Translations under genes and position numbers: made by a program
The notes under the pieces: generated by a model
The model's database searches: none
Told to the model about the DNA's origin: nothing
The model's input: the letters and a program-made list of their open reading frames with translations, nothing else
Assembly (NCBI GenBank): GCA_028698215.1
Contig: JAQVDY010000005.1
Location: 8,108-72,107, forward strand
Direction of reading: 5' to 3'
Source of the DNA: Actinomycetota bacterium
Lineage (GTDB): Bacteria; Actinomycetota; Humimicrobiia; Humimicrobiales; Humimicrobiaceae
DNA: 64,000 nt
Part shown: piece after piece, positions 3,373 to 51,247 of the stretch
Numbering within the stretch: position 1 is the stretch's first letter
Layout: each line of letters opens with the position of its first letter

Positions 3373-4560
3373 ATGGAAAATAAGATTAAGATAATAGAAA
3401 AAGCGCTTGAAGCTGGAAATGGTATTCTCAGGCTGAATCCAGCATGGGTAGCCAGGAATTTTTTGCCGCCTGGCAAAAGGTTGGGGCTGGCGGAAGATGC
3501 ATATGATAAAGGCCAGAGAGGATGGATTACTGAAAGATGGCTGGCATCAACCACCAAAGCTGATAATGCAATTGGTCCGGAGGATGAAGGGTTAAGCTAC
3601 CTGAATATTGAGGGAGCCAGCATTACATTAAAAGAGGCTATAGACCTGCTAGGTACCATAATTATGGGTAAAGAATATTCCCGCAGCCATAACGGGTTGG
3701 GAAGGTTGCCCAAAATTTATGATTTTGGAGACAGGATTCCTTATCACATACACCAGATGCAGAAAGATGCGGTAAAAGTTGGCAGGAAATCTAAAGATGA
3801 AGCCTATTATTTTCCAGAAGGAGTAGATGTCGGCCCTCACCCCGAAACCTTTTTTGGAGTCCACCCTTATATATATGACCAGAAAAAATTTGATATTCTT
3901 CTCCCTTACCTGGAAGATTGGAATAGCGACCTGATTTTAAAGCATTCCAGGGCCTACCAGAATACTCCAGGGGAAGGCTTTATTTTACCCAGCGGAATCC
4001 TACATGCCCCTGGTACGGCAGTCACTATTGAGCTGCAGGAGGATTCAGATGTGTTTTCAATGCTCCAGGCTCTAGCTGGAGGTAAAATAATATCTAAGGA
4101 GCTGTTGTATAAAGATATAAGCAAGCAAGATCGGGAAAAATATAAAGAGAGGGCTGTTCTGGACCAAATAAACTGGAAGGATTCTGCAGATCCCTATTTT
4201 TATGAAAACTATCACTTAGAGCCGCAATTAATAGAAGAGCAGGAAGGAGGCCGAGAATACTGGATTTATTATGGTACCAATAAATTTAGCGGCAAGAAAC
4301 TGGTTGTAGAACCGGGAGGTGAATTTACCAGTAAAGATAATGGAGTTTATAATATAGTTGCCTGGAAAGGTAAAGGAATTTATGGGGGGAATGTAATTGA
4401 AGCCGGCAATTTCGGCCTGGATGAGTTAATGGTAACCCATGACTGTGCCCTAAAACCTTTAATTATTAAGAATACGGGTAATGATGAATTAATTATATTT
4501 AAGTTCTTTGGACCCGATATAAATAAAGACCTACCTCAGCTAAAAAAATATAAACCTTAA
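3373..4560 (+). CDS. Type I phosphomannose-isomerase-like cupin protein (putative sugar-phosphate isomerase)
   Basis: 395 aa. It aligns by eye with ManA/PMI class I: RLPKIYDFGDRIPYHIHQ ~ RFPLLTKLLDVKEDTSIKVHP; KDEAYYFP ~ KTECWYII; GEGFILPSGILHAPG ~ GDFYYVPSGTLHAL. The Zn-ligand equivalents (H/Q, H, E, H) are retained. No search was run. Confidence 0.45.
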   Translation: MENKIKIIEKALEAGNGILRLNPAWVARNFLPPGKRLGLAEDAYDKGQRGWITERWLASTTKADNAIGPEDEGLSYLNIEGASITLKEAIDLLGTIIMGKEYSRSHNGLGRLPKIYDFGDRIPYHIHQMQKDAVKVGRKSKDEAYYFPEGVDVGPHPETFFGVHPYIYDQKKFDILLPYLEDWNSDLILKHSRAYQNTPGEGFILPSGILHAPGTAVTIELQEDSDVFSMLQALAGGKIISKELLYKDISKQDREKYKERAVLDQINWKDSADPYFYENYHLEPQLIEEQEGGREYWIYYGTNKFSGKKLVVEPGGEFTSKDNGVYNIVAWKGKGIYGGNVIEAGNFGLDELMVTHDCALKPLIIKNTGNDELIIFKFFGPDINKDLPQLKKYKP

Positions 4561-4752
4561 ATGTTAGGACTTAGCTAAAAGATAAACATGCTATAAAAGG
4601 TTAATAACATAGTTTAAGGTTAAACATTTAAGTAAAACTTTATAGTTATGTCTTTATAATTAATGTTTAATTTAAAGCTTAAAATATGTAATTAATACCG
4701 AAATTAGTATATTTTAATTACTTAAAACCAGGATAGAAAGGATTTCTATATA

Positions 4753-5190
4753 ATGGTAACTATTAATGTAAAATCAATTGATAAAAACGCTAAGTTTCCC
4801 ACTTACGCTCATCCCGGGGATGCTGGAATGGATCTGTACAGCAGGGTAATGATAACTTTAAAACCCATGGAAAGAAAGAAAATTCCTACCGGTATACAGG
4901 TGGCTATACCTGAAGGTTATGCCGGATTTGTGCAACCTAAATCTGGATTGGCCATTGATAATGGAATAGCGCTGGTAAACAGTCCAGGGCTAATTGATTC
5001 AGGGTTTAGGGGTGAAATATGTGCAATCTTAATTAATTTAGACCAGAAACAGGATTTTATTATAAATAAAGGCGATAAAATATGCCAGTTGGTTATACAA
5101 AAAGTAGAGAAAGCTGAAATTAAGACAGTTAGCCAACTGGATAATACCAGTAGGGGGAAGGGAGGGTTTGGCAGCACTGGAAGATTCTAA
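4753..5190 (+). CDS. dut: dUTP diphosphatase (trimeric dUTPase)
   Basis: 145 aa. Carries the dUTPase motifs AGMDL, GLIDSGFRGEI and the C-terminal GGFGSTG motif. Confidence 0.9.
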   Translation: MVTINVKSIDKNAKFPTYAHPGDAGMDLYSRVMITLKPMERKKIPTGIQVAIPEGYAGFVQPKSGLAIDNGIALVNSPGLIDSGFRGEICAILINLDQKQDFIINKGDKICQLVIQKVEKAEIKTVSQLDNTSRGKGGFGSTGRF

Positions 5191-6020
5191 TTTAGTAATA
5201 CCAAACCCAAACAGGACATTGCTTATACAAAAAGATTAATTCATTTCACCTTCAAGCGCATAAAAATTTAAAGCACATTATTTAAATTATTGCCCTGCCC
5301 CTAATGTTTACTGAGATATTTATCTATTATTATGACTACTATATATTACTAATTAGTATAAAAGATATAATTATAGATGTCTATATTGTAACATTTGTTA
5401 TAATATGAAAAGATTTATGGTAAATTATCTTATATTTTATGCCTAAACTAATGGCTTAACCTGGTTTGATAGCAAATTAACTGAATAGTTTATATACCAT
5501 CAAATTTTTTTAAAATAATGGATTCTTATACATAAATAATAATAAATTAGGACCTTGGAGAATGGCCGGTTGGGCAAGGCCATGTTATGGAGATCTGAGC
5601 TTAAGTTCCAAAAATAATATTACTAGCGCTGACAGGGTTATAGTTAATCATTTATGAAAATATAAATTAATCATCTATCAGAAACAGAAGCAATTAAAAG
5701 GTCTATATTGGCCAAAGAGAAGAAACTTAAAAACAAAATAATTGAGTTAGAATAAATAGATTATTTTATTTAAATTTTTACATTTTATAGAAGTAGGCTA
5801 GAAAGGCATGTGAAAGCGACTTTTTTAGGACAAAGGGATATAAAAGCCTGGTAATAGCTCTAAACACTAGGAAAAATATAGAATAAATATAACTACCGAT
5901 AATATATATTATGTTAACTTTTAAATATTTTAACTATTTTCCCCATCATTCCAAATACTCTACTTATATCCCCTGTAAATATTGTATTTAAAAGTTTACC
6001 AAAAATAATAAAAGCAAATA

Positions 6021-6060
6021 AAAAGTACAGGGGTATTACAATTACCCCTGTACTTTTTCC
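6021..6060 (-). terminator. Bidirectional rho-independent terminator after fucI
   Basis: Perfect 15-bp stem AAAAGTACAGGGGTA (6021-6035), loop TTACAAT, then TACCCCTGTACTTTT (6043-6057). A and T runs flank both sides. It lies 37 nt beyond the fucI stop. Confidence 0.8.
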
Positions 6061-6093
6061 AAGGACGATGTACGTGGTATAAAGAATCTTTAT

Positions 6094-7893
6094 TTAAATT
6101 TTCTTATACAGTGACCCAAAATTCCTACAGGCCCTGTAGTCAGCCCCCTCCATATCCTTGGTGCCAAAAGCAGCCCAGGCGCTAGGCCTAAACAGCTTGC
6201 TATCATCAACATTATGCATGGCCACCGGTATCCTTAGCATAGAAGCCAAGGTTATAAGCAAAGCTCCAATGTGACCATAACTGAATACTGCATGGTTTAC
6301 TCCCCAGTTGTTCATAAGGGTATAAGTATCGTTAAAGGGAATCTTACCGGTTATTTTAGGAGCAAACCAGGTATTGGGCCAGGTTGGGTCGGTTCTGTCA
6401 CTTAAAATCTGGCCAACTTTTTCCGGTAAAGAAACGGAATAGCCTTCTGCAATTTGAAGTACAGGGCCCAGTCCCTTGATAAGGTTTATCCTGAACATGG
6501 TTACCGGCATATCACCTTTAGTTACAAAGTTAGCAGAAAAGCCGCCGCCCCTGAAGTATTCAACGTTTGCTGGCCTAAACTGGGAATTGGCCAAGGTAGC
6601 CTTAACTTCATCTTCAGTGATATCCCAGTATGGCTTCATGGCAGGTTTTCCGTCTATGCTTTGCTGACCTGTTCCGTCTAATGCTGCTGAACCTGAATTT
6701 ATCAGATGTATAATACCAGTTTTGCCATAGCCCTCTAAATCATACCCGGTTACCCTTTTTACTGCCTCTGGGCTCCAGAAGGTTCTTACATCAGCAAATA
6801 CCTGTGCGGTATTGGTTAAGAGATGTCCAAAAATCATGGGGACGCCATTTAAGGCATCGTTTTCTGTAGCCACCAGGTAAGGCTGTCTTATGCCGTTCCA
6901 GTCAAAGGAAGTGTTTAGCATGGTTTCAGTAAAATCACCATTGGGGAAATGATCAGTCCACTGGCGCTGTCCCTGAAATCCGGATGCTAAAGCATTATGG
7001 CCCATAGCTTCTTCCTTAAAATCAATATCGGCCAGTTTTGGATTTCCTACCATAAGATCTCTTACAATTAAAGTCATTTTAACCACAAATTCCCAATCAG
7101 CATCTTTTTGTGCCCTGGTTTTCTGAATGGCAGGCGAGTTATTATCTGGTCCTTCTGTAAGGTTTTTCTTTACCCAATCCAGTGCTTTGCTGTATTCCTG
7201 GTGGTCATAGATGTTCTCTTCTATTCTCCTGATTATTTCAGTGGAATCAACATATTCACATCTCATTCCCAGATAATCTTCAAAGAAATTGGGATCTACT
7301 ATGGATCCGGCAATACCCATAGAGGTATTACCTATGGAAAGATAGGATTTACCCCTCATGGCTGCCACGGCTAGGCCGGCCTGGGCAAATTGAAGCAATT
7401 TCTGGGCTACATCTGAAGGTATGGAGGTATCATCTGCATCCTGCACGTCTTTACCGTATATGCCAAAAGCAGGAAGGCCTTTTTGGGCATGTGCTGCCAG
7501 AACTGCTGCCAGATATACTGCTCCCGGCCTTTCACTGCCGTTAAAACCCCAAACTGCTTTGGGCCTGGTGGGATGCATATCCATGGTTTCAGAGCCATAA
7601 CACCAGCTGGGAGTAACGGTAATGGTTAGGCCTACCCCTTCCCTGGCAAATTTATCATCGGCCATGGTAGCTTCTGCTACTCCGCCTATAGTGGTGTCCG
7701 CAATAACGCACTCCACTTGATCCCCGCAAGGGTGCCTTAAGTTTTCTGAAATTAGTTTAGCGGCAGATTTAGCCATGTTCATGGTCTGGGTTTCCAGAGA
7801 TTCCCTTACCCCCTTCCTTCTGCCATCGATGGTAGGCCTGATGCCTATTTTGGGCAAGGTACCTATTAACCTGTTTTTGGTTGAATCGCTCAT
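6094..7893 (-). CDS. fucI: L-fucose isomerase
   Basis: 599 aa. Near-collinear identity to E. coli FucI throughout, for example [55 protein letters not shown] and [29 protein letters not shown] lies 9 nt upstream. Confidence 0.95.
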
Positions 7894-9181: not shown

Positions 9182-10345
9182 TTAGTATTTGCCAAAATCT
9201 TTTAATGTTTGCCACCAGGCCATGATATTTTCTGCAGGTACCGAGCTCTGTATGATGTGGATGGGAGAAAATATAAAGCCTCCTCCCGGAGCCAGGTCAT
9301 CAATTCTTCTTTTAGTTTCCTCTCTTACCTGTTGAGGAGTGCCAAAAGACATGATATTGTTATCACAGGAACCGCCCCAGAAGGTAAGATCTTGGCCAAA
9401 TTCTTTTTTAAGGGTTTTGGTATCCATTCCCTTGCAGTTAACCTGTACCGGGTTAAGGATATCCACTCCTGCTTCTAGGAGTAAAGGTATAGCCTCTTTT
9501 ATGGCTCCATCACAGTGGAAAAATATATAAACTTTGGATTTAGCCTTCTTTTTTATAAATTCAAACAGTTTTTTATGATAAGGCCAGATCAATTCCCGGT
9601 AGAGGTCCAGAGATACCAGCAAGCTGTCTTTATTGCCTAAATCATCAGCGGCAGATACCACCAATACATTATCCCCAACTGTTTCTAAAGCCTTCTGCCA
9701 ATAAGCCATTTTTATCTCCAGAAACTTGTCCATAATGGCCTGTACCATCTTTTTATTACATAGCATATCCATAAAAAATTGTTCATAGCCCCTCATCCAC
9801 ATGGCATTTTCCCACATCCCGGCACTCATTCTTTCTAAAAAATAAGCCCTCTTTTCCTCTTTTACTATCTGATCCGCTTTTTCTTTCAATTCTTCAAACC
9901 GGGCTGCATCAATTGGGTCCGGCCAGGGATAATTTTCTATGTCCGTAATAGTTTCGGCCTGCTGCAGGGGGCTTTGATAAATATCATAATAATGGCCTCC
10001 CTCTACCGGCATCCTGTATTCTATCCCGAACTCATCTATTAATCCGCAGTAATTATCTTTAATTCCCAAGTTCCGGTATAAACCTGGATTTTTTGGAGGA
10101 TTAGGAGCTACATTTTTAATATCAATTTCTAATTGTTCTATGATGTCCTGTTCCATTTTACCCAGTTGAGTAATGGTATCCCAGACTTCAGCCCGGCCCT
10201 TCAAGCCCAAAAAGTTTCTAAGATTATTTAGGGCCTTTATATTTATGCCCGCCACCAAGGCTCCACCCAGATCAAATGGAACCCTGTCCGGCTCCCTATG
10301 CTCAAGTGAAGCAATTACCCTGTCATAGCTTGTATATTTATCCAA
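9182..10345 (-). CDS. URO-D family protein, paralog 1 (probable TTG start, translationally coupled to AOR)
   Basis: The tool ORF (to 10567) overlaps the AOR 3' end in another frame. The homologous N-terminus starts at LDKYTSYDRVIASLEHREPDRVPFDLGG. The only start codon after the AOR stop (10356) is TTG at 10345. The C-terminus (VLNPVQ...FWGG...PGGGFIF) parallels paralog 2. Confidence 0.55.
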   Translation of the reverse strand: MDKYTSYDRVIASLEHREPDRVPFDLGGALVAGINIKALNNLRNFLGLKGRAEVWDTITQLGKMEQDIIEQLEIDIKNVAPNPPKNPGLYRNLGIKDNYCGLIDEFGIEYRMPVEGGHYYDIYQSPLQQAETITDIENYPWPDPIDAARFEELKEKADQIVKEEKRAYFLERMSAGMWENAMWMRGYEQFFMDMLCNKKMVQAIMDKFLEIKMAYWQKALETVGDNVLVVSAADDLGNKDSLLVSLDLYRELIWPYHKKLFEFIKKKAKSKVYIFFHCDGAIKEAIPLLLEAGVDILNPVQVNCKGMDTKTLKKEFGQDLTFWGGSCDNNIMSFGTPQQVREETKRRIDDLAPGGGFIFSPIHIIQSSVPAENIMAWWQTLKDFGKY

Positions 10346-10355
10346 TTTTTTAACT

Positions 10356-12239
10356 TTATTTATTTTTAAATTCAGTAAGTTCCAATTCCAGTAACTTGTG
10401 ATCGGTGGGTTTTCCCCCAGTATCCCACCCTGCCAGTTGATAGTAAAGCTGTTTGGCCTCCATAAACTGTTTTTTATCCAGGTGCATCCCTTGGTTCGGG
10501 CCATTTTCAATAGGTTCAAATATCCTGTCTGGCAGAATATCTTCTCCAACCTCTTCCCGCAGGGCAAACAACTTATACATATTTATCCTTTTTTCTCCAA
10601 TCTTAACCAGCTCAAACAAAGAAGTTTCCCATCCAGTCACCGCATCTATTATATCTACCAGATACTGAAAATTAAAAAATCTAACTGGGGAAAAGGCAAA
10701 AATACAGCCGCATAGTGCATCCAGCATAGAAAAAGCCGGCTGCAGTAAAAAAAACATCCTCACTTTGTCTTGATTTAGTGAATCTGCTGGTAACCGGTCA
10801 TATACGGTAAGTGGCGCCACCTTGTCCATAAACATTTGGTTTGCCTGAAAATCAAAGTCAGTATCATGTTCAACCACAGTATAGTAAGGGCCAATGGGAG
10901 AGACAGCGTAGCCTAATCCCAGCATTTGTTTAATTCTGGGTTCATGGAATGGCATTTCCATACCCTTTATATGCATCGCAAATTTTTCTGAACCCTGGAT
11001 ATGGTAGGAGGCCAGCCTTACCCCCTCGGCCAGGGTATCACCAATGGATTTTCTCTCCATAATCATGGTGGCCATCTTTAACATGGCCTGGGAATCACCC
11101 CACCTTAAACAGGTCCCCATGGTATCATCAGGGCTGATTAGCCCGTTTTCATAGCATTCCACTGCATAGCCCAATATGTTTCCCAGGGAGGTTCCGTCTA
11201 CCCCATAGTCGCAAATCATATTCCATAGCTTTAAGGTGGCTTCCATATCATCTACCAATAAATTGTAAGAGGTGGCAGCCAGGCTTTCCAGCTCGATAAG
11301 GCCGAACTCAGGATTAAGGTTAATATCCTTTACAGAAGGCAGCCTTTTTTTACACCCTCCCTGGCAGTGGGAACAGTTATGGTTCTCAGGGGCATATTTA
11401 TCAGCAATAGTGAAGCCATCTATGGATTCCGCCTTATCAAAGTAGGAATAATGAAAATTTTTAGCTGAAAGCATTCCCTGGTCAGATAATAGCTTTAGAT
11501 ACCCTGCATTGCTGGCGGGTCCATGCTGGCTTTCATTTAAGGGGTTGGTTAAAAAATTTTGCTCAAAATATTTGGAAACCTGGCCTAGCTTTTCAGGATT
11601 ACTGACCTTGATAGGTTTCTGGCCGTATACGCATAATGCTTTTAAATTCTTAGAACCCATTACTGCTCCCACACCACACCTTGAACTTATAAAACAGTTG
11701 TCTGTAATTATGGAAGCAAAACGAACCAGTTTTTCCCCTGCTGGCCCAATTAAGGCTATGCTGTGGCGGTTCAAGTCTTCCTGTTGGGTTAGAATGTTAT
11801 AAGCTTCAGAAGTTTTAAGCCCCCAAATATGATTAGCCTCTAAAAATTTTACTTCACCGTCATTTATCACTATCATGCAGGGCTTTTCAGATTTACCTTT
11901 TATAATAATAGCATCAAAACCAGATTTTTTAATCATTTCACCCAGGTAACCGGGAGTAGTAGCTTCCCCTATCAGGTTAGTTAAAGGAGACTTGGTAATT
12001 ACATTGTGCATGGCAGTTCCCGCACAATCCACTCCTGTAATGGGGGAAGTGGAAAAAATAAGGATATTATCCGGGGATAAGGGATCAGTTTTGGGCTTTA
12101 AATTCTTAAGTAAAAAGTAAGCTGCCAAGCAGGCCCCACCAATATATCTGCGGTAAAATTTATCATCTAACTTTATTGATTCTACCTGCTTATCGGTTAA
12201 ATCTATTTGTAAAACTTTGCCATTGTAACCAAAAGACAT
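10356..12239 (-). CDS. Aldehyde:ferredoxin oxidoreductase family protein (tungsten/molybdopterin, [4Fe-4S])
   Basis: 627 aa. AOR N-terminal signature MSFGYNGKVLQIDLT plus the conserved tungstopterin-binding and Cys-cluster regions. The ATG lies 4 nt after the ABC ATPase stop. Confidence 0.85.
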   Translation of the reverse strand: MSFGYNGKVLQIDLTDKQVESIKLDDKFYRRYIGGACLAAYFLLKNLKPKTDPLSPDNILIFSTSPITGVDCAGTAMHNVITKSPLTNLIGEATTPGYLGEMIKKSGFDAIIIKGKSEKPCMIVINDGEVKFLEANHIWGLKTSEAYNILTQQEDLNRHSIALIGPAGEKLVRFASIITDNCFISSRCGVGAVMGSKNLKALCVYGQKPIKVSNPEKLGQVSKYFEQNFLTNPLNESQHGPASNAGYLKLLSDQGMLSAKNFHYSYFDKAESIDGFTIADKYAPENHNCSHCQGGCKKRLPSVKDINLNPEFGLIELESLAATSYNLLVDDMEATLKLWNMICDYGVDGTSLGNILGYAVECYENGLISPDDTMGTCLRWGDSQAMLKMATMIMERKSIGDTLAEGVRLASYHIQGSEKFAMHIKGMEMPFHEPRIKQMLGLGYAVSPIGPYYTVVEHDTDFDFQANQMFMDKVAPLTVYDRLPADSLNQDKVRMFFLLQPAFSMLDALCGCIFAFSPVRFFNFQYLVDIIDAVTGWETSLFELVKIGEKRINMYKLFALREEVGEDILPDRIFEPIENGPNQGMHLDKKQFMEAKQLYYQLAGWDTGGKPTDHKLLELELTEFKNK

Positions 12240-12243: not shown

Positions 12244-13752
12244 TTAAATATAATAGCTTCCTATTTCTTTACTAACTATATTGTAGCTATCTGCATCCTT
12301 GTTCACGTTTTCAATTTCCCCTACGATTTTTTTGTCCCTGAATATATATATTCTATTAGCCAGCTTAATAATCTCCGGCATATCCGAAGATATTAATATG
12401 ATAGATTTTCCAGACTTATGGGCCAGGTTATATATAAGTTGGTGGATGTATTCCTTGGCCCCTACATCCACGCCTATGGTAGGTTCATCAAATATAATGA
12501 TATCGCAGTCCGCTACCAGCCATTTGGCGATACTGACTTTCTGCTGATTTCCACCACTTAGCTTTCCTGCTATTTGGTTGAGCCCGGTAGTACGGATATC
12601 TAGGTTATCCACCATATCTTGGGCATGCTTCCTTTCTTTGTTGCCGTCAATAAACCTCAATATTTTGCTGGCTATCCTAGGCCAGATGGTAATACTGATA
12701 TTGGTTTGCAAGGTACTGCCCAGCAGAAGGCCTTCTTCCTTTCTATTTTCAGTAACATAACCCATCCGGTACCTGTATAGGCTATCAGCTATGGACCGGG
12801 GATTGATTTTTTTGCCTTTTAAGAATACTTCCCCAGACTGCCTCCGGTCCTCTCCAATGACAAGCCTGGCTAACTCGGTTCTGCCAGCACCTACCAATCC
12901 ATAAAAACCTAAAACTTCACCCGGGTAAAGTTTAAAGCTAACATCTTCAGCCTTGTGCTCCTTATAGATATTTTTTGCTTCCAATAAGGCTTTTCCGTTA
13001 TCCAGGGATTCAAACTTGAATGATTCAATCTTTTCTTCCCTGCCTATCATCATCTTTACCAAATCCTGTTTATCTACTTCGCTGATGGGTCTGGTTCCAA
13101 TTTTTTTACCATCCCTTAGTACGGTAACCATATCGCATACCATAAACACTTCTTCCAGTTTATGGGTAACAAACAAAATGATTATGCCTTTTTCCCTTAG
13201 ACCTTTTAGTATTGAAAAAAGCTTTTCTGCCTCGCCTTCAGAAATTGAAGAGGTAGGTTCGTCCAGAAGTAAAATTTTGGATTTGGAAGCCAATGATTTG
13301 GCTATCTCCACCATCTGTTTCTGGGCAACACTAAGCTCGCCAATAGGTTTGGTAGGGGGAACTTCTAATCCTACCATATCTAGATATTTCTTAGCAGTTT
13401 GATTAATTTTTTTCCAGTTAAGTACACCGGTCTTACCGTAAGTTACCATTTTGTCCAGCATAATATTTTCAGCCACACTATATCTGGGCAAAACCTGTAG
13501 CTCCTGGTTAACCACACTGATTTCTTTTTTCAAAGCATCTATGTAGTTTTCCACTACCAGTTCGTTAGAATTAAGATACATCTTACCGCTATCAGGCATG
13601 TGCACACCACAAATTACTTTAATTAAAGTGGATTTGCCTGCACCATTCTCCCCTAAAAGAGCATGTATCTGGCCCTGTCCAAATTCAACCGACACATCAT
13701 CTAACGCCTTTACTCCCGGAAAAGACTTACTTATGTTTTCTAACCTTAACAC
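12244..13752 (-). CDS. Sugar ABC transporter ATP-binding protein (RbsA/MglA-type, duplicated ATPase)
   Basis: 502 aa with two NBDs. Walker A GENGAGKST, LSGGNQQK signature, second NBD GLVGAGRTEL. GTG start with SD GGGGGA 8 nt upstream. Confidence 0.9.
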   Translation of the reverse strand: MLRLENISKSFPGVKALDDVSVEFGQGQIHALLGENGAGKSTLIKVICGVHMPDSGKMYLNSNELVVENYIDALKKEISVVNQELQVLPRYSVAENIMLDKMVTYGKTGVLNWKKINQTAKKYLDMVGLEVPPTKPIGELSVAQKQMVEIAKSLASKSKILLLDEPTSSISEGEAEKLFSILKGLREKGIIILFVTHKLEEVFMVCDMVTVLRDGKKIGTRPISEVDKQDLVKMMIGREEKIESFKFESLDNGKALLEAKNIYKEHKAEDVSFKLYPGEVLGFYGLVGAGRTELARLVIGEDRRQSGEVFLKGKKINPRSIADSLYRYRMGYVTENRKEEGLLLGSTLQTNISITIWPRIASKILRFIDGNKERKHAQDMVDNLDIRTTGLNQIAGKLSGGNQQKVSIAKWLVADCDIIIFDEPTIGVDVGAKEYIHQLIYNLAHKSGKSIILISSDMPEIIKLANRIYIFRDKKIVGEIENVNKDADSYNIVSKEIGSYYI

Positions 13753-13782: not shown

Positions 13783-14913
13783 TTATTTAAAATACTCTGT
13801 TTTGGCGCTTTCAGCTAAATCAAAAGCAGCCTGCCAAAGCTCATCCATGAAAGTATCAATATTATCCTGGGTAATAACTACACCAAAAGTATCGATAAAT
13901 GTATGGTCAGCCTTGGGCTCCAATCCATCTATCAGGTATTCCAGCAATAAAGGAGTAACATAACCCTGGCAGTATGGATTCTGGCCAAAGGTACCGGTAA
14001 TATAACCCTGCTCAACAGCCTTAAGTACAGCAGGATCATCATCAATACCAACAAAGGCTATACTGTCATTTTCCATTTCAGTAAGTATCTGAGCAACAGC
14101 TACAGTAGGATTGTATCCGGTGGTAACTATACCATTAATAGAATCTCCGCCAGCAGCTAATGCATTACTTACCTTTTCTATACATTCTTCCAGTTCATTC
14201 ATGTCACCTATGGTTTGCACTATTTCTACATCTGGATATTTGGCAGCAACTTCCTCCACGCCTTCTTTTCTGAGAATGGTGTTTGGATCGGTTACTACTT
14301 CCAGGACATTCAGTATTCCGCCTTTATAATCCATAGCTTCACATACTCTTTCAGCAGCTTCCATGGCAGCAGCCTTAACATCGGTAGCCACGGTAAAAGA
14401 TGCAGGAGTAGGCTCTTGGGTCTGAGCACCATAATTACATACCGGAACGCCTTGATCTACTACCTCTTGATATAAAGCATTAGCTCCAGCTGCATCCAGC
14501 GGGAAAACCATAAGTCCATTATAGCCCTGGGCTATTAATGCTTCTACCTGCTCATTTTCAGTAGGCTGGGTCCAGTCTGTACCTATTTGGGAATAAACTT
14601 CTACCCCGAAATCCTCAGCATGTTTAGCCAGGCCCTTTTTTACGGACTCATAGTATGGGTGAACTGCCGGCCAATAAGAACCCAACTTGTATTTGCTGGT
14701 ATCTACTGCTTCTTCAGCAGCCTCTTCAGCTTCTTCCACTACCGCTTCAGCAGCCTCTTCAGTTTCTTCCACTACCGCTTCAGCAGCCTCTTGAACTTCC
14801 TGGGCTGCTTGCTCTACTGTCTCTGCAGCGCCGGCGCAACCGCTAAGCGGAAGAGCCACTGCTAGTGACAATACCAGCAGGACCATTATAATTTTTGATA
14901 AATGCCTCTTCAT
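13783..14913 (-). CDS. Sugar-binding lipoprotein (ABC periplasmic binding protein, RbsB/PBP1 fold) with an acidic repeat linker
   Basis: Signal peptide with lipobox LSGC-AG. An Ala/Glu-rich linker (EAAEAVVEE x3) is followed by a periplasmic-binding-protein type I fold. SD AGGTGA. Confidence 0.8.
   Translation of the reverse strand: MKRHLSKIIMVLLVLSLAVALPLSGCAGAAETVEQAAQEVQEAAEAVVEETEEAAEAVVEEAEEAAEEAVDTSKYKLGSYWPAVHPYYESVKKGLAKHAEDFGVEVYSQIGTDWTQPTENEQVEALIAQGYNGLMVFPLDAAGANALYQEVVDQGVPVCNYGAQTQEPTPASFTVATDVKAAAMEAAERVCEAMDYKGGILNVLEVVTDPNTILRKEGVEEVAAKYPDVEIVQTIGDMNELEECIEKVSNALAAGGDSINGIVTTGYNPTVAVAQILTEMENDSIAFVGIDDDPAVLKAVEQGYITGTFGQNPYCQGYVTPLLLEYLIDGLEPKADHTFIDTFGVVITQDNIDTFMDELWQAAFDLAESAKTEYFK
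14712..14800. repeat. 33-bp in-frame tandem repeat (about 2.7 copies) encoding the AVVEEAEEAAE linker
   Basis: CTTCAGCAGCCTCTTCAG(C/T)TTCTTCCACTACCG occurs at 14712-14744 and 14745-14777, with a partial copy at 14778-14800. Confidence 0.85.
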
Positions 14914-14995: not shown

Positions 14996-15964
14996 TTATT
15001 CTATCAACCTTCTTTGATTGTATATATTTCTAACTCTGTCAATGGCTACTGCCAGCAGAATCAATAGTCCCAGGTATGCCTGTTCCCAATAAACATTGGT
15101 CTGCAGTATAATAAGACCGTTTTTAATCATTACCATAATAGCCCCACCTAAAAGAAGCCCGAATGCGGTAATAGAACCACCACTAAGAGCAGTACCTCCC
15201 AGAATAGCTACGGCAAAAGATATGATCAACCAGTCTTGTCCGGTAACCGGAGGTGCTGTACCCATTCTGGATATATAAAGTACTGCAGCCAGGGCGGCAA
15301 CAAAACCCGATAGTATATGGCTGAGTAATTTTATTTTGTCTGTATTTATACCTGAAAACTTGGAAGCTTCCAGGTTTTCTCCTACGGCCAGTATCCTTCT
15401 ACCTACTAAAGTATATTTAAAAAAGAGAAACATGATTATAAGGGCAAAAAGAGTGAAGATAAAAATATAGGGAATCCCAAACACTTTGCCTTTCCCCAAT
15501 ATGGTAAAAGTTAAGGGGATATTTACAAAAGAAAAACCTTGGGTAAAACCAAAATTTATACCAGTAAAGATAAATGAAGTAGCCAGGGTAACAATGAAAG
15601 CGTTTATGCCAAACTTGGCAGTAATAACCCCGTTTATGGCTCCGCAGGCTATACCTACCACTAATGCGGCAATAGTAGCTACTGCTCCATGTATTCCATG
15701 GATATCCATCAGGTATCCTGCAGTAATGGTAGCCAGACCGCCTATAGCACCCACTGATAGGTTCATGTCACCCACTACCAAGACCAATCCTTGAGCCAGC
15801 CCTATAAATACATATAAAGACAGCGTTCGGCCGGTAGTATACATGTTAAAAGGTGTCAGAAAACTGTCAGAAAAAATTGAAAGTATGGCAAATAATATCA
15901 TGGTTGCTATAAACAACCCAAAGTTTCCGCTGGTCAATATGTCTCTTATGTAGTTTTTTTTCAA
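14996..15964 (-). CDS. Sugar ABC transporter permease (RbsC/BPD-TM family)
   Basis: 322 aa, about 10 TM segments typical of RbsC. TTG start with SD GGGGAG 7 nt upstream. Confidence 0.85.
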   Translation of the reverse strand: MKKNYIRDILTSGNFGLFIATMILFAILSIFSDSFLTPFNMYTTGRTLSLYVFIGLAQGLVLVVGDMNLSVGAIGGLATITAGYLMDIHGIHGAVATIAALVVGIACGAINGVITAKFGINAFIVTLATSFIFTGINFGFTQGFSFVNIPLTFTILGKGKVFGIPYIFIFTLFALIIMFLFFKYTLVGRRILAVGENLEASKFSGINTDKIKLLSHILSGFVAALAAVLYISRMGTAPPVTGQDWLIISFAVAILGGTALSGGSITAFGLLLGGAIMVMIKNGLIILQTNVYWEQAYLGLLILLAVAIDRVRNIYNQRRLIE

Positions 15965-16016: not shown

Positions 16017-16760
16017 TCAGCTGCTTAATATTTCATCCTGTTTTTGGGAACTTTGTATCTGGCTATAGTTATTTTTTACAAATTCCAGGTGCTCTCTGAT
16101 ACTGGTTACTGCTTCATATTGTTTTTTATTTTTTATATTATTAAAAATAGTTCTGTGATCCTGCAAAGTGTTTTGCATTACCCCTGGTATTTCAGTAGTT
16201 TTAATAAGTATTTCAGTCATACAATATTTCAGGAGAGGAAAAATGATATCAAAATATTTTTTAATTACCTGGTTATGGGATGCTTCTGACAGCTTCTGGT
16301 GAAATTCATAATCCAGCCTTACGAACTCTTCGCTATTTTGCTTCCTAATATAGAAATCAGTAAGTTCCAGGTTTTCTTCCATTCCCTTTAAATCACTCTC
16401 ATTAGCGTGGTCAATGGCTGCCTGCACAGCAATTGACTCAAATAATTCCCTGAATTCCAAGAGGTCGGGCACTATCTTTTCATCCGGTTTAAAGGTGATA
16501 CGGGCCGGGTTAAAAAAAGAATTAATGGAAAAATCCTTGATATATGCCCCTACTCCAGGTTTGATTTCAATTACATCTACCAGCTCCAGTGCCTGAAGGG
16601 CTTCCCTTACGCTTCCCCTGCCGGTTTGATAGATGCGGCAGAGCTCATTTTGAGAAGGTAGAAGCTGGCCTGAGTTTAATTTACCTTGCCCAATATCTTC
16701 CAAAATCCGGTCAATAATAATTCTAGGAGCTTTCTTTTTTACACTCATCATACCTGTCAT
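16017..16760 (-). CDS. GntR-family transcriptional regulator (FadR/FCD subfamily)
   Basis: N-terminal GntR wHTH (LPSQNELCRIYQTGRGSVREALQALE) plus a C-terminal all-helical FCD-like domain. It sits 52 bp upstream of the permease and is co-oriented, so it is likely the first gene of the operon. Confidence 0.8.
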   Translation of the reverse strand: MTGMMSVKKKAPRIIIDRILEDIGQGKLNSGQLLPSQNELCRIYQTGRGSVREALQALELVDVIEIKPGVGAYIKDFSINSFFNPARITFKPDEKIVPDLLEFRELFESIAVQAAIDHANESDLKGMEENLELTDFYIRKQNSEEFVRLDYEFHQKLSEASHNQVIKKYFDIIFPLLKYCMTEILIKTTEIPGVMQNTLQDHRTIFNNIKNKKQYEAVTSIREHLEFVKNNYSQIQSSQKQDEILSS

Positions 16761-16848
16761 ACAAGTGTTATTGTTTTTAAATATTAGGCAACATTTAAAT
16801 AAAAGTCAATATAAAACTGCTAAAAAAAGAAATTAAAACAATTATTAT

Positions 16849-16897: not shown

Positions 16898-17908
16898 CTA
16901 AGAAGTAGAGCTCCTGATTACAAGGTGTGTTCCCAGCCTGATAATTAAAGGCGGCTCATTTCTGTAATTTGATGGTTTGTTAATTTTTTTTATGATAAGC
17001 TCGGCTGCAGTATTGCCCATACTGTACACCGGTTGATTTATGGTGGTGATGGGAGGATCGGTTATCTGGGTCCAGTCCGGGTTGTCAAAACTTAATATGC
17101 CAATATCCCGGGGAATGTGCAAACCTTTGTTTTTTATGGCCAAAACCGCTCCTAGTGCCATATCCAGGTTAGTAACAAATATAACTTCCGGTCTTGGGTC
17201 GGCCTCCACTAGTTCGGTTGCTAAATTTATTCCACTTCTTTTTTTAAAATTACCAGTTTTTATTAAACCAGGGTCAATATTTATGTTTGCCTCAGTCAAA
17301 GCCCGCTTATAGCCCTCCAGCCGCTCTGCCCCCGTAGTCCGGTCAGGAAAACCATTAATAATAGCAATTCTTTTATATCCCCTGCTGATAAGGTATTTTA
17401 TTGCTTCATATGAGCCTTTTTCATTATCTACCAGGACTGCATCATTTTCCAATCCGGGTACTAGTCTGTCTACCAGTACTATCTGCATCCCTGATTTTTT
17501 TAAAAAATCAATATAGCTGGCATTCTTTCCGGTAGGAGTCAATATTATGCCGTCAACCCGGTTGGCTTTTAAAATCCTTAAATACTTTAGTTCTTTTTGG
17601 GGATTATCATCCCCATTGCATAAAATAAGGCTGTAACCCTCCTCTATGGCCACATCCTCTACTGCTTTAGCTAAAGTTGAATAAAATTGTGACAGCACAT
17701 TTCCTACAATAATACCCAGGGTATTGGTCTTTTCTCTTCTAAGGCTGCTGGCCACTGCGTTTATTTCATAATTGAATTGGGAGGCCACCTTCAGGACTTT
17801 TTTTTTGGTTTCCTCTTTTACTCCAGGATAATTGTGCATTACCCTGGACACCGTAGCGGTGGAAACACCTGCTTTACTGGCTATGGTTTTTATATTAATT
17901 TTTTTCAT
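16898..17908 (-). CDS. LacI-family transcriptional regulator
   Basis: Start placed at MKKINIKTIASKAGVSTATVSRVM (LacI HTH). A periplasmic-binding-protein-like effector domain follows. The longer tool ORF reads through the upstream operator. Confidence 0.85.
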   Translation of the reverse strand: MKKINIKTIASKAGVSTATVSRVMHNYPGVKEETKKKVLKVASQFNYEINAVASSLRREKTNTLGIIVGNVLSQFYSTLAKAVEDVAIEEGYSLILCNGDDNPQKELKYLRILKANRVDGIILTPTGKNASYIDFLKKSGMQIVLVDRLVPGLENDAVLVDNEKGSYEAIKYLISRGYKRIAIINGFPDRTTGAERLEGYKRALTEANINIDPGLIKTGNFKKRSGINLATELVEADPRPEVIFVTNLDMALGAVLAIKNKGLHIPRDIGILSFDNPDWTQITDPPITTINQPVYSMGNTAAELIIKKINKPSNYRNEPPLIIRLGTHLVIRSSTS

Positions 17909-17919
17909 GGCTTTATTTA

Positions 17920-17933
17920 TGTTAACGTTTACA
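17920..17933 (-). promoter_or_regulatory. Second copy of the operator TGTTAACGTTTACA, just upstream of the LacI start
   Basis: The 15-mer TGTTAACGTTTACAT is identical to 16849-16863. It lies 12 nt upstream of the LacI ATG, a geometry consistent with autoregulation. Confidence 0.5.
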
Positions 17934-17965
17934 TAATAAGCTAAAAAAAACATAAAATCAATAAG

Positions 17966-39086: not shown

Positions 39087-39902
39087 ATGAGAAGGCCTTA
39101 TTCCAGGGATTTAATTAAGTTAAGCAAACTGATTTCCCTCAGAGGCAGAAAAACACTAATTACGGGGGCTGGATCGGGAATCGGAAGGGCTATTGCCAAA
39201 AGATTTGCTGAAGCCGGTTCAGACCTGATGCTTTTAGATATTGATCAACCAGGCTTAAGCCAGACCAGGGAAATCTTAAATCATTTTACCTGCCTCAAAC
39301 ACCTTTACACCATAGATTTAACCAGCAAAAAAGATATAGACAGCTACTGGGAAAGCCTGGGCACTGAATTACCGGATATCCTAATAAATAATGTTGGGAT
39401 CTACCCTTTTAAGGATTTCCTGGAGATGGAGCCGGATTACCTGCAACAGATTATGGATATAAATTTAAACTCTGCCATATGGATGTGCCAGAAATTTATA
39501 AAAAGCAGAATGAACAGGGGCGGCATAATTATAAATACCTCATCCATAGAAGCTCTCCTGCCCTTTAAAGAGCATCTGGCCCACTATAGTATAACCAAGC
39601 TGGGTATCATAGGCCTAACCAGGTCATTGGCCAGAGACTATGGGAAAATGGGATTCAGGATAAATGTTGTGCTTCCAGGGGCAATAAAAACCAAAGGTAC
39701 GGATAACCTGGTAAAATATGCTTTAAAAAAATTCAAATGGGGTTGGATTAAGACCGGCTATGATTTTCAATCCAGACTGGCATTAGGCCGCTGGGGCTAT
39801 CCGGATGAAGTGGCCAAGGTAGTCTTGTTTCTGGCTAGCGATATGGCCAGCTATATACAGGGAGTTATGCTGCCGGTAGATGGAGGTTTTTTATCTTCCT
39901 AA
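39087..39902 (+). CDS. Short-chain dehydrogenase/reductase (SDR) family oxidoreductase
   Basis: TLITGAGSGIGRA (TGxxxGxG), NNVG, and catalytic YxxxK (YSITKLG). Confidence 0.8.
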   Translation: MRRPYSRDLIKLSKLISLRGRKTLITGAGSGIGRAIAKRFAEAGSDLMLLDIDQPGLSQTREILNHFTCLKHLYTIDLTSKKDIDSYWESLGTELPDILINNVGIYPFKDFLEMEPDYLQQIMDINLNSAIWMCQKFIKSRMNRGGIIINTSSIEALLPFKEHLAHYSITKLGIIGLTRSLARDYGKMGFRINVVLPGAIKTKGTDNLVKYALKKFKWGWIKTGYDFQSRLALGRWGYPDEVAKVVLFLASDMASYIQGVMLPVDGGFLSS

Positions 39903-45395: not shown

Positions 45396-46453
45396 TTTTG
45401 TTGCAATAAGGAGAATAATTTACCTAAAGAAAAAATATCCTGCTGGTTATGCCTTATTACTGGAATAAGGGTGCCAATATTGCCGGTTTGGATATAGCGC
45501 TGGTAAAACTGAGGGACCATAAATCCCGGTAAATCTTGATCCCTGCCTATACCCAGTATATTTTGCTCCAGTGAGCTTAATCTAAAACTATCTAACTTGT
45601 GTTTCCAAAAACCACGGCATAGCGGCAACAGGTCCAAATGAATTCTATCCAGGTCATGGTTCAAGCCATAGTAGCAAAGCCGCTGCCTAATCATTGGTAT
45701 ATCAAACATGCGTCCATTAAAAGTGATAAATGCCGTATGTGAAGATATATGGTGTTTAAGCAGGTACAGTACTGCAGCTTCTTCTTCCAGGCCCCTGGCC
45801 AGGTATTGCTTCACGGTAATAGAGCCTTTTTTAATCTTACCTACACCTATTAAAATAATAGGCATGTTATATAAGCCCATAGTTTCTATATCCAATAGCA
45901 GAAAATCCTTTAAATCTATAAATGAAGAAAGAAGAAGATGATGGGGGTGGGAACAAGAATACCATCGGGAAATCAGGCTACTAAGCTTTTCTAGTTCTTT
46001 TTTTTGCATAGAATCAATGAACTGCCTGGCTTGATGCCCGAACCTGGGATGGGAAGCCAAATCTTCCATGCTCCGGTAACCTTCTTTTTTTAGCTGGGAT
46101 TCAGTTATAGAACCAATGCCATAGATAAGTTTTAAATCTTTTCCCAGAAAATCTCCTGCCTGACCAGCAGCCAATCTATGTAAATCCATGGATTTAGACT
46201 CAGTTACTAAAAAACAGTTTCCTTTGCTAGTTCTAATCTGGTTTCCCTTTAAAACATCACTAATTTGTTGGCCCTGGTGCTTTTGGGTCAGGTATTTAGC
46301 CTGCTTTTGCATAAACTCCCATATATCCTGCTGGTTTTGGGCTGCTTTGCTCAGCCGGTCAATATAACGGGTCCTTCCCGATATGAGGGCTCCACAGCTA
46401 TGACAGTAATTTTGAATAATATCTATTTTAATACCACAACCAGGGCAGTACAT
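45380..46453 (-). CDS. RNase-H-like 3'-5' exonuclease with N-terminal zinc ribbon (MrfB/YprB-like)
   Basis: N-terminal CPGCG...CHSCG. Exo motif I LLLDIETMGL. Overlaps the helicase gene by 16 nt. Confidence 0.55.
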   Translation of the reverse strand: MYCPGCGIKIDIIQNYCHSCGALISGRTRYIDRLSKAAQNQQDIWEFMQKQAKYLTQKHQGQQISDVLKGNQIRTSKGNCFLVTESKSMDLHRLAAGQAGDFLGKDLKLIYGIGSITESQLKKEGYRSMEDLASHPRFGHQARQFIDSMQKKELEKLSSLISRWYSCSHPHHLLLSSFIDLKDFLLLDIETMGLYNMPIILIGVGKIKKGSITVKQYLARGLEEEAAVLYLLKHHISSHTAFITFNGRMFDIPMIRQRLCYYGLNHDLDRIHLDLLPLCRGFWKHKLDSFRLSSLEQNILGIGRDQDLPGFMVPQFYQRYIQTGNIGTLIPVIRHNQQDIFSLGKLFSLLQQKWKSS

Positions 46454-50300: not shown

Positions 50301-50446
50301 TATTATTTTAAACCATATTTTTAATAAAAAATTATCCCCTTAAAAACCCACTAAAGTTTGGTTACCCTAATTTTTAAAATATTGTTTAACTATTTTAAAT
50401 ATGGTAACATTCCTCTTTAAATAATTTGTTCCACAAAGGAGTTTAC

Positions 50447-51235
50447 ATGGATATAGTGGTGTGCATAAAACAGGTTCCAGGGACCTCGAAAGTGAAGATA
50501 GATCCCAAAACCGGTGTGCTTATTCGTAGTGGTATTGATACCAAGATGAACCCCTATGATTTATTTGCCCTGGAAACGGCCATAAGGATAAAAGAAGAAA
50601 AAGGCGGTACCATAAAAGTCATAAGTATGGGCCCTCCCCAGGCTACGGATGTAATCAAGGAAGCATACATGATGGGAGCCGATGAAGGGATTTTGCTTTC
50701 AGATAAAAGTTTTGCCGGGGCAGACGTATTAGCCACTTCCTATACCCTTTCCCAGGGTATAGAGAAACTTAAACCCTACCATTTAATTATTTGCGGTAAG
50801 CAAACTACAGATGGTGATACTGCCCAGGTAGGACCGGAAATAGCAGAATTTTTACAGATACCCCATATAGCTAATGTTTTAAATATTTTAGAAATAAGGG
50901 ATGACAATATGGTAGTAGAAATGGATATGCCTAACACCATAGAAGTGGCCAGGATTAGTTATCCCTGCCTTATAACCGTAGAAAAAGACATATTTGAGCC
51001 CCGCCTCCCCTCTTTTAAGAAAAAAGTTTCCACCCGGGATAAAGAGATAAAGATACTGGGCTTAAGAGATTTCAAGGACCAGGATACCGGCAGGTATGGG
51101 CTGAATGGCTCCCCTACCCAGGTAGAAAAGGTATTTCCACCTCCAGAAGATAACAGCCAGGAAAAATGGAAAGGAAATCCGGAAGAAACAGCCATAAGGA
51201 TTGCTGAAAAACTTAAAGAATTAAAGTATATATAA
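50447..51235 (+). CDS. etfB: Electron transfer flavoprotein beta subunit (LctB-like)
   Basis: MDIVVCIKQVP start with SD AAAGGAG 5 nt upstream. EtfB AMP-binding signature throughout. Confidence 0.85.
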   Translation: MDIVVCIKQVPGTSKVKIDPKTGVLIRSGIDTKMNPYDLFALETAIRIKEEKGGTIKVISMGPPQATDVIKEAYMMGADEGILLSDKSFAGADVLATSYTLSQGIEKLKPYHLIICGKQTTDGDTAQVGPEIAEFLQIPHIANVLNILEIRDDNMVVEMDMPNTIEVARISYPCLITVEKDIFEPRLPSFKKKVSTRDKEIKILGLRDFKDQDTGRYGLNGSPTQVEKVFPPPEDNSQEKWKGNPEETAIRIAEKLKELKYI

Positions 51236-51247
51236 GAGGTGTAGCTG

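Follow-up and report, generated by a model that had tools for sequence, protein, structure and literature searches.

A gene of the aldehyde ferredoxin oxidoreductase (AOR) family lies within a sugar import and isomerisation operon in the 64-kb stretch of Actinomycetota DNA analysed here (contig JAQVDY010000005.1 of an uncultured bacterium's metagenome-assembled genome, positions 8,108 to 72,107, family Humimicrobiaceae; hereafter, the window), and its placement there is not incidental. The clade to which its product belongs has become a dedicated part of sugar-utilisation modules. The solid part of our interpretation is that co-transcription and evolutionary association link a metallopterin/[4Fe-4S] oxidoreductase to the import and isomerisation of fucose- or arabinose-type sugars. 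As to its function, we tentatively favour (with a probability of about one in three) the oxidation of a 2-hydroxyaldehyde from a fucose-type sugar, likeliest L-lactaldehyde, or glycolaldehyde for D-arabinose, with ferredoxin as the acceptor. The association and the sequence signature are robust and testable; it is the function that we infer.

Recurrence of the AOR gene in sugar loci

The operon lies on the minus strand in the order gntR(FCD)-permease-SBP-ATPase-AOR-UROD1-UROD2-fucI, in which SBP is the sugar-binding protein and UROD1 and UROD2 are members of the UroD superfamily (Table 1). Its intergenic gaps range from 4 to 82 nt, and those checked on the sequence were 4 nt (ATPase-AOR), 10 nt (AOR-UROD1), 13 nt (UROD1-UROD2) and 30 nt (UROD2-fucI). 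No strong terminator was detected within the operon, and a strong one follows fucI. A preliminary description, made from the letters alone, had placed an AOR-family gene in a carbohydrate-uptake operon, translationally coupled to the preceding gene across a 4-nt gap. The family assignment and the carbohydrate setting were confirmed by the open reading frame (ORF), domains, fold and sugar ABC neighbours. The gap is exactly 4 nt (from the end of the ATPase stop codon at 12244 to the AOR start codon, ATG, at 12239), a close spacing that may allow such coupling. The CUT2 ABC genes are in keeping with uptake, but the operon is more than an uptake operon because two UroD-superfamily genes and fucI lie downstream.

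Orthologues with 61-64% identity in three other assemblies (L001-L003) occupy the same operon, with UroD-1 lost in L002/L003. The wider clade, at 43-51% identity, is found in differently built sugar loci (Table 1), and L098 is the sole exception to the sugar-importer context. To compare these placements with those of other AORs, we counted the clade as 9 context types and applied Fisher tests against 49 generic AOR loci, each with flanks of 8 kb or more, taken from a scan of metagenome contigs. Sugar ABC components were near the AOR gene in 8/9 clade types and 3/49 controls (p 7e-7), LacI/ROK regulators in 6/9 and 1/49 (p 1e-5), FucI in 4/9 and 0/49 (p 3e-4), and UroD-like genes in 5/9 and 4/49 (p 0.003); the neighbour-detection queries were drawn from clade loci, which favours detection there, and ABC components were still found at 25-35% identity.

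In the metagenome-contig scan, made with the clade alignment, matches to the generic GxGAVMGSK motif swamped the results, and the only clade member returned was L030, which is of the "GPxY" type and adjoins fucI. A scan of genome contigs from species representatives with the AOR protein yielded only generic AORs (28-36% identity), these representatives including neither the source genome nor close relatives, and no clade member was found on sequenced plasmids.

Several loci hold a second AOR gene. Side-by-side paralogue pairs occur at L012:9156-11006, at L019:8680-13845, and in L061, L076 and L093; in L012 one copy is of the sugar-clade type and the other of an "RGACH" type. The exceptional locus, L098:4510-12124, comes from the Clostridiales metagenome-assembled genome PH28_bin88, and its clade member retains the catalytic His; a second, divergent AOR, ThiS-like genes and a GntR/FCD regulator come after it. 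A ThiS-like gene also adjoins the AOR gene in L013.

A rebuilt active site in a small clade

The AOR gene product belongs to the AOR/WOR family by its domains, ligands and fold. Pfam matches to AFOR_N (PF02730, 3.4e-66, residues 7-206) and AFOR_C (PF01314, 3.2e-85, residues 222-621) together span residues 7-621 of the 627-aa protein, which aligned end to end with the Pyrococcus furiosus enzyme PfAOR (1aor; residues 3-624 against 2-604 of the chain; E 6.7e-96). Further PDB matches were 9mqx (5e-84) and the Clostridium autoethanogenum AOR 9g7j (1.9e-73), followed by FOR 1b25 (1.4e-69) and AorB 8c0z (3.2e-58), and the weakest of those listed were WOR5 (1.1e-57) and BamB (4.5e-42). An AlphaFold2 model made from 31 clade sequences (pLDDT 91.6) reproduced the three-domain AOR fold when compared with 1aor by Foldseek (TM 0.89/0.92, E 1e-48). 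The score against the NCBIfam GAPOR equivalog was 30 bits (cut-off 1300), so the protein is not GAPOR. The nearest homologues were from "Candidatus Humimicrobiaceae". The database representative P0001, reported as 100% identical, differs at one residue (LPADSL in the window, LPAYSL in P0001), and the exact window sequence may be the cluster member P0243 (NCBI MDD3776498.1), which NCBI names only as an "aldehyde ferredoxin oxidoreductase family protein".

By gene context the protein is a Class I WOR: no WorS polyferredoxin or other redox-subunit gene adjoins it, its neighbours being the ABC ATPase and a UroD-like gene, and it shares the lack of an adjacent small subunit with other Class I WORs (PMC13328260). 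The gene is intact and is predicted to encode a cytoplasmic, single-subunit tungsto- or molybdo-pterin oxidoreductase.

The four cluster ligands, whose loss would have refuted the proposal in the preliminary description, are all present (C289, C292, C296 and C512, equivalent to PfAOR C288, C291, C295 and C494) and were invariant in 120/120 homologues and 5/5 solved references. PfAOR Glu313 is retained as E318, and the Asp residues through which the two DxxGL(C/D)x motifs contact the pterin (PfAOR D343 and D489) correspond to D348, which is invariant, and D507, a position that is D or E in all 23 closest homologues. We know of no protein ligand to the metal in this family. The protein would carry tungsten or molybdenum as a metal bis-pyranopterin and may pass electrons to a ferredoxin partner.

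The second shell is different. Aldehyde-oxidising AORs are marked by Thr243, Glu313, Tyr427 and His448, a set extended by Tyr312 and Tyr452 (PMC13328260, PMC12096430). Only the Glu is kept in the window protein, which has N244 for Thr243, H432 for Tyr427 and Y453 for His448, and the window subclade has further swaps equivalent to Y312L and Y452F. Directly after this Tyr/His segment stands a 13-aa insertion bearing "VEHDTDFD" at residues 455-462; EHDTDFD is invariant within it, and nowhere is the model less confident than in this insertion (pLDDT 66-71). The Tyr427 to His change is common to an 82-member superclade, whereas the loss of His448 is confined to the "GPxY" subclade. Among characterised clades, GAPOR, a sugar-phosphate specialist, is alone in diverging comparably in the Tyr/His region, and an active AOR from C. 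formicoaceticum also has His at 427 (PMC12096430). As a lead only, the equivalents of PfAOR R76 and R182 are Met and Phe in the window protein. These arginines are candidate cofactor-phosphate contacts in PfAOR.

A neighbour-joining tree of 132 sequences (100 bootstraps) included the references 1aor, 9mqx, 9g7j, 8c0z and 1b25, with sequences taken from HMMER alignments, and covered neither GAPOR, GOR nor WOR4. The window AOR fell in a 21-member clade (bootstrap 100) that holds all sugar-locus AORs with the motif "G-P-x-Y". This clade lies inside a 35-member clade with the common "VEHDTDFD" insertion (bootstrap 67), itself inside the 82-member superclade (bootstrap 94), which excludes all five characterised references. 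The protein thus does not cluster with a characterised amino-acid-aldehyde AOR, whereas firm clustering of that kind, joined with sugar-independent expression, would have refuted the preliminary description's proposal; by residues, tree and model scores it stands outside AOR sensu stricto, FOR and GAPOR. A search of 1.84 billion cluster representatives returned 2122 AOR-family proteins at E<=1e-30. Because only 12 of the best 150 matches bear the insertion motif, the clade is small; it is undescribed, and probably has a sugar-linked job not yet characterised. One 1034-aa database protein (P0290) carries an AOR module at residues 401-1017, fused behind an N-terminal extension of about 400 aa.

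Compared with PfAOR and the bacterial enzymes 9g7j, 9mqx (a bifurcating WOR) and 8c0z, the window AOR has the same AFOR_N/AFOR_C architecture, four cysteines, Glu313 and pterin contacts, but it is only 32-36% identical to them, lies outside their clade and has the swaps and the insertion. Its context is a sugar operon, whereas that of PfAOR-type enzymes is peptide or aromatic aldehyde metabolism. P. furiosus FOR (1b25) has a segment of similar length after the active-site glycine and a similar "S-x-I-G" motif, but it is 28% identical, its Tyr416 and His437 are His and Tyr in the window protein, and the two do not cluster.

The operon, its UroD-superfamily genes and the rest of the window

Table 1. 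Features of the operon in the window, and gene orders of related loci (labelled L).
Feature	Coordinates	Strand	Basis or gene order
LacI-family regulator	16898..17953	-	Pfam LacI and Peripla_BP_1/3; operon membership uncertain
Sigma-70-like promoter candidate, 5' of the gntR-type gene	16781..16809	-	TTGACT-17-TAATAT; consensus match only
GntR/FCD regulator, first operon gene	16017..16760	-	Pfam GntR and FCD
CUT2 sugar ABC permease	14996..15964	-	Pfam BPD_transp_2 5e-37; AraH/RbsC-like
CUT2 sugar-binding protein (SBP)	13783..14913	-	Pfam Peripla_BP_4 4.7e-45
Sugar ABC ATPase, two ABC domains	12244..13752	-	Pfam ABC_tran x2, 6e-59; AraG-like, 497 bits
AOR/WOR-family large subunit (Class I type, WorL only)	10356..12239	-	ATG start, 627 aa
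UroD-superfamily protein 1 (UROD1), 387 aa	9182..10345	-	Pfam URO-D 4.7e-23; "FHCDG" motif
UroD-superfamily protein 2 (UROD2), 414 aa	7924..9168	-	MtaA-like H-x-C motif "LHSCG"
L-fucose (D-arabinose) isomerase FucI, last operon gene	6094..7893	-	NCBIfam equivalog NF008220
Intrinsic-terminator-like hairpin	6020..6058	-	16-bp stem and T run; 36 nt past the fucI stop
L011			LacI-AOR-FucI-CUT1 ABC-UroD-(corrinoid protein, MttB)
L012			ROK-lyxose/mannose isomerase (LyxI)-CUT1 ABC-AOR-UroD-AOR2-SDR
L004			ROK-CUT1 ABC-AOR-FGGY kinase; kinase overlaps AOR
L013			CUT1 ABC-GH42-GH116-AOR-ThiS-like
L097			LacI-CUT1 ABC-UroD-FucI-AOR-UroD-further ABC systems
L099			CUT2 ABC-CUT1 ABC-UroD-AOR-UroD-LacI-FGGY
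L030			CUT1 permeases-zinc-type alcohol dehydrogenase-DUF4432-AOR-FucI
L098			Glycyl-radical enzyme and activase-AOR-AOR2
L014			LacI-FucI-UroD...UroD-CUT2 ABC-UroD-GDSL esterase; flanking genes as in the window; no AOR
L015			UroD sugar locus; iron-type alcohol dehydrogenase after ABC permeases; no AOR
L016			LacI-CUT1 ABC-UroD; no AOR

FucI is a true isomerase of its equivalog, scoring 1078 bits against a cut-off of 775 and carrying all three FucI Pfam domains. The other assignments are less specific. The best NCBIfam models for the ABC ATPase (AraG, AlsA and RbsA) and for the GntR/FCD regulator (NanR, LldR, PdhR and GlcC) were all below cut-off; the SBP best matched the CUT2 proteins 4rs3 and 5hko in the PDB (E 6e-20), and its comparisons with NCBIfam and the PDB gave no ligand clue. 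The GntR/FCD regulator is conserved in L001-L003 and the LacI neighbour is present in L001 and L014. Promoter-like matches in the region were no more numerous than the shuffled expectation. For UROD1 the automatic ORF (9182..10567) overlaps the AOR gene, and its sequence together with a 386-aa L001 orthologue suggests TTG 10345, 10 nt past the AOR stop, as the likeliest real start; that of UROD2 was set by the identical database protein P0121.

UroD-like genes adjoin the AOR gene in the window, L001, L002/L003, L012, L097 and L099 (in L099 one on each side), and one lies in the same locus in L011. A family profile of these proteins matched the corrinoid methyltransferases CdmB and MtaA (E about 1e-5), a single-sequence search against the PDB gave no match, the zinc-site H-x-C of MtaA aligned with an invariant His and a conserved Cys, and their predicted fold resembles those of UroD and MtaA. 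They share fold and motif with MtaA, but the relation of UROD1 and UROD2 to MtaA, CdmB and the O-demethylase MT I proteins is very distant. The AOR-adjacent UroD proteins are 13-51% identical to one another and do not form one orthologous group; because of this diversity the AOR-UroD link stands at the family level, and each gene occurs without the other. The UROD2 subfamily is large (more than 4000 hits at E<=1e-10, the 120 best cluster representatives all with at least 60% identity). UROD2 orthologues at 60-80% identity are very common, frequently in sugar loci that lack an AOR (L014-L016), and the subfamily recurs beside sugar ABC importers and FucI even where the locus has no corrinoid protein. 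To our knowledge this association of the UroD superfamily with sugar importers and FucI is undescribed.

Corrinoid systems have a corrinoid protein, an MT II and an activase, but no corrinoid (B12-binding) protein, activase or MT II/methyl-THF methyltransferase was found in the 64-kb window; lacking a corrinoid protein, the locus falls short of a full corrinoid methyltransferase system, although the other components may have their genes elsewhere in the genome. L011 is the only sampled locus with such a protein beside the AOR module: at L011:15149-17893, directly downstream of the AOR-FucI-ABC cluster, a UroD-like gene precedes genes for a corrinoid protein (MtgC/MtbC-like, 184-207 bits) and an MttB-superfamily protein. 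Anaerobic O-demethylases of the MT I type belong to the UroD superfamily, as do many proteins whose substrates are unknown (PMC13222342), and the UROD2 subfamily may, on one reading, demethylate sugars anaerobically. A UroD-type decarboxylation that would turn uronic or aldonic acids into pentoses was rejected, as there is no electron sink and the MtaA-type H-x-C is kept.

Housekeeping genes flank the operon: at one end dUTPase, KARI and LexA, and at the other a hexapeptide transferase, BFN, PRTase, DUF3048 and PBP5. The GC content of the region (0.40-0.42) matches that of the window, so recent transfer is not indicated. An AT-rich stretch 3' of fucI, noted at 5190-6094, holds the operon terminator (GC 0.317 over 4001-6000), and the plus-strand ORFs 2666-2968 and 3373-4560 had no Pfam match. 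Elsewhere in the window, the gene for a DEAD-box helicase that ends in an MrfA zinc-binding domain (43140-46453, minus strand) overlaps a downstream RNase_H_2-superfamily gene by 16 nt, a couple that resembles the MrfA/MrfB DNA-repair pair. A large signalling protein (39899-42286, minus strand) combines a 7TM receptor region with PAS, GGDEF and HD-GYP domains, which suggests that it both makes and degrades c-di-GMP.

Possible functions of the AOR and their meaning

In the reading we favour, the CUT2 ABC system would import a fucose-type sugar, of L-fucose or D-arabinose configuration and perhaps carrying O-methyl groups. The two UroD-superfamily proteins, which are homologous to corrinoid-dependent methyltransferases, would pre-process it, and FucI would convert the aldose to a ketose, to be cleaved by enzymes encoded elsewhere. 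The AOR would then oxidise the released 2-hydroxyaldehyde (L-lactaldehyde from a 6-deoxyhexose, glycolaldehyde from D-arabinose) to the acid, passing two electrons via its [4Fe-4S] cluster to ferredoxin and standing in for an NAD-dependent lactaldehyde dehydrogenase or lactaldehyde reductase. The sugar, the aldehyde, the direction, the acceptor and the choice of tungsten or molybdenum are what we infer here.

This reading is suggested by FucI, a hallmark of such pathways and the commonest enzymatic partner of the clade. It is also suggested by iron-type alcohol dehydrogenase genes, which in related loci adjoin the AOR or replace it and whose family includes lactaldehyde reductases: in L002/L003 one adjoins fucI (its lactaldehyde-reductase match is weak), and in L015 one takes the position after the ABC permeases where L004 and L012 have the AOR. 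An aldehyde substrate is further indicated by the pairing of the L098 clade member with a glycyl-radical enzyme and activase, as many glycyl-radical enzymes yield short-chain aldehydes. The nearest models of the FCD regulator include the lactate, glycolate and pyruvate sensors LldR, GlcC and PdhR (below cut-off), which points the same way. EtfB, EtfA and a GlcD-like FAD-linked oxidase, encoded in a row at 50426-53904 on the plus strand, 38 kb from the operon, could take the product onward; the row resembles the electron-confurcating lactate/glycolate dehydrogenase-Etf complexes of anaerobes and, by this analogy, could consume lactate or glycolate together with reduced ferredoxin made by the AOR.

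There is also a biochemical precedent, since the tungsten-dependent, AOR-family WOR1 of E. limosum oxidises lactaldehyde and other short aldehydes in vitro (PMC11725836). WOR1 differs from the window AOR: it belongs to Class IV and clade 87, has five subunits, bifurcates electrons and keeps the canonical residues, and its role is detoxification during growth on lactate, with genes linked to no sugar operon (PMC11725836).

The resemblance to known fucose catabolism is partial. The canonical E. coli-type L-fucose regulon comprises fucPIK, fucA and fucO, along with AldA. The window shares with it a true FucI in an inducible-type sugar operon, and an oxidoreductase disposing of lactaldehyde would be the analogue of AldA or FucO. 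It differs in having no fucK, fucA, fucU or fucP, in importing by a CUT2 ABC system, in its two UroD-superfamily genes and in a metallopterin/FeS oxidoreductase where the regulon has an NAD enzyme. No FGGY kinase (fucK) or class II aldolase PF00596 (fucA) was found in the 64-kb window, and because of their absence the locus is not a canonical fucose regulon.

Several observations weigh against the oxidation of a 2-hydroxyaldehyde. Neither the operon nor the sampled clade loci hold a fuculokinase, a PF00596 aldolase or any other cleaving enzyme, so the formation of lactaldehyde is unsupported by context, and the absence of fucK and fucA from every related locus weakens a simple release of lactaldehyde by fucose cleavage. 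Three loci have no deoxy-sugar enzyme (L012 with lyxose/mannose isomerase, L004 with an FGGY kinase only, and L013 with GH42 and GH116). The AOR repeatedly adjoins UroD-like and transporter genes rather than end-of-pathway genes, and L014 retains the ABC/UroD/FucI set without it, which makes the AOR an add-on. Finally, three of the four second-shell residues of known aldehyde-oxidising AORs are swapped, with loss of the catalytic His448, a rebuild that a small aldehyde would not need and that suggests a different substrate or mechanism; the Met and Phe at the R76 and R182 equivalents count in the same direction, if these arginines do contact the cofactor phosphate.

The main alternative, possible though doubtful, is that the AOR acts on the sugar itself, interconverting an aldose (or cyclic hemiacetal) and an aldonic acid or aldonolactone with ferredoxin. 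It could reduce an imported aldonate or lactone (of the L-fuconate, L-galactonate, D-arabinonate or D-lyxonate type) to the aldose for FucI or LyxI, or oxidise the aldose to an aldonate for an FGGY (gluconokinase-like) kinase. An isomerase is adjacent or one to two genes away in 5/9 context types (FucI in the window, L011, L030 and L097; LyxI in L012), and no clade locus has an aldolase. The FGGY kinase of L004 scores near-equally as xylulokinase and gluconokinase and with the AOR would make a complete route from aldose to phospho-aldonate, while in L030 a gene for DUF4432, which has a mutarotase-like fold, is coupled to the AOR gene by a 4-nt overlap. GntR/FCD regulators usually sense carboxylates, and set against L014 the window block gntR-ABC-AOR-UROD1 looks like a unit set upstream of UROD2-fucI. 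The gluconate/glucose couple, at about -0.45 to -0.49 V as calculated from textbook free energies, is within reach of ferredoxin both ways. An Asn/His/Tyr second shell with an acidic insertion would suit a polyhydroxylated or cyclic substrate, and the similar Tyr/His divergence of the sugar-phosphate-specific GAPOR counts here too.

On the other side, we know of no AOR-family enzyme that acts on cyclised aldoses or aldonates, and none came up in the literature searched for a tungsten enzyme of this kind. CUT1/CUT2 importers and LacI/ROK regulators generally go with neutral sugars, and the loci contain neither an aldonate dehydratase nor a lactonase family, a point against the oxidative direction. 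It is not evident what a cell would gain by using up reduced ferredoxin to reduce an aldonate, and the UroD-like partners are left unexplained. GAPOR and GOR are AOR-family enzymes of carbohydrate catabolism, and GAPOR also has no canonical Tyr/His region (PMC12096430), but GAPOR is unrelated to the window AOR at subfamily level, GOR needs a small subunit that the window AOR is without, and both act in central glycolysis rather than in a peripheral import/isomerase operon.

Less probably, the AOR works with the UroD-superfamily proteins in the anaerobic use of O-methylated or otherwise alkylated sugars, either by removing a C1 or aldehyde product or by supplying low-potential, aldehyde-derived electrons that keep a corrinoid partner as Co(I). 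The enrichment of UroD-like neighbours (p 0.003), their profile, zinc-site and fold likeness to CdmB and MtaA, the O-demethylases in their superfamily (PMC13222342) and the corrinoid protein and MttB-family gene of L011 are consistent with such a partnership. In the literature searched, sugar demethylation was found only as an aerobic P450 system releasing formaldehyde (PMC6292453), with no anaerobic counterpart. Most clade loci, like the window, have no corrinoid protein, activase or methyl-THF methyltransferase, however, and corrinoid methyl transfer frees no aldehyde. The AOR also occurs without a UroD gene in three context types (L004, L013 and L030), UROD2 orthologues are common in sugar loci without an AOR, and the AOR-adjacent UroD proteins are not orthologous. 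AOR-catalysed hydroxylation of the methyl ether was rejected as thermodynamically unfavourable with ferredoxin, by our own estimate.

A broader proposal, which we hold at clearly less than even odds, is that the clade is a sugar-level tungsten or molybdenum enzyme, acting as a ferredoxin-dependent aldose/aldonolactone oxidoreductase or as the redox partner of UroD-type methyltransferase homologues. In the latter version it would serve a so-far unknown anaerobic route for modified (e.g., O-methylated) fucose-, arabinose- or lyxose-type sugars.

We think it as unlikely as the joint work with the UroD proteins that the protein has left aldehyde chemistry for another two-electron reaction on a sugar derivative, or that it binds its cofactor abnormally. 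The family already has non-aldehyde enzymes such as BamB and WOR5/ASOR (PMC13328260, PMC12096430), and the swaps at His448, Tyr427, Thr243, Tyr312 and Tyr452, the Met and Phe at R76 and R182, and the invariant acidic insertion beside the active-site segment could reflect such a change. Against this, Glu313, Asp343, Asp489, the four Cys and the overall fold are kept, the Tyr to His change at 427 also occurs in the active C. formicoaceticum enzyme (PMC12096430), and no neighbouring gene points to an alternative reaction. Hardly credible is a general aldehyde-detoxifying or acetate-reducing AOR whose position has no pathway meaning: AORs of this actinobacterial group are annotated generically as acetate/acetaldehyde enzymes (PMC7325909) and the NCBI name is equally generic, but the position is kept across orthologues at about 60-69% identity, the association has arisen anew in eight or more sugar loci, each organised in its own way (p 7e-7 in the comparison with control AORs), and the spacing is tight and the active site divergent.

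Of the specific proposals in the preliminary description, no substrate among lactaldehyde, formaldehyde and an aldose or aldonic aldehyde is singled out by the sequence. Ferredoxin may be the partner, but no ferredoxin gene or motif occurs anywhere in the 64-kb window; tungsten or molybdenum may be required, but the window has no tungstate/molybdate transporter (tup/mod) or pterin-synthesis (moa/moe) genes, and no Moco/Tuco (molybdenum or tungsten cofactor) riboswitch was found. That description had missed the rebuilt active site with its insertion, the UroD and FucI partners, and the absence of fucK and fucA.

A 2026 classification assigns a defined physiological role to five of 92 AOR/WOR clades and makes no mention of sugars, ABC transporters or isomerases (PMC13328260), and no literature link of this clade to sugar importers, FucI or UroD proteins was found. 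The clade is marked out by a diagnostic motif (Tyr427 changed to His, no His448, and the VEHDTDFD insertion) and by a reproducible genomic partnership with a sugar ABC importer, FucI or LyxI, and UroD-superfamily proteins, which together give a concrete, testable entry to a new AOR/WOR function. If lactaldehyde is the substrate, fermentation of fucose-type sugars in these subsurface Actinomycetota would reduce ferredoxin, which could serve for making H2 or for the confurcating oxidation of lactate, and these bacteria would need tungstate or molybdate to grow on the sugar. If instead the enzyme acts on the sugar or with the UroD proteins, this would be new anaerobic carbohydrate chemistry, with a physiological role and a class of substrate both new to the AOR/WOR family, a function for a very widespread orphan UroD subfamily, many of whose members lie in sugar loci, and a first handle on anaerobic sugar demethylation.

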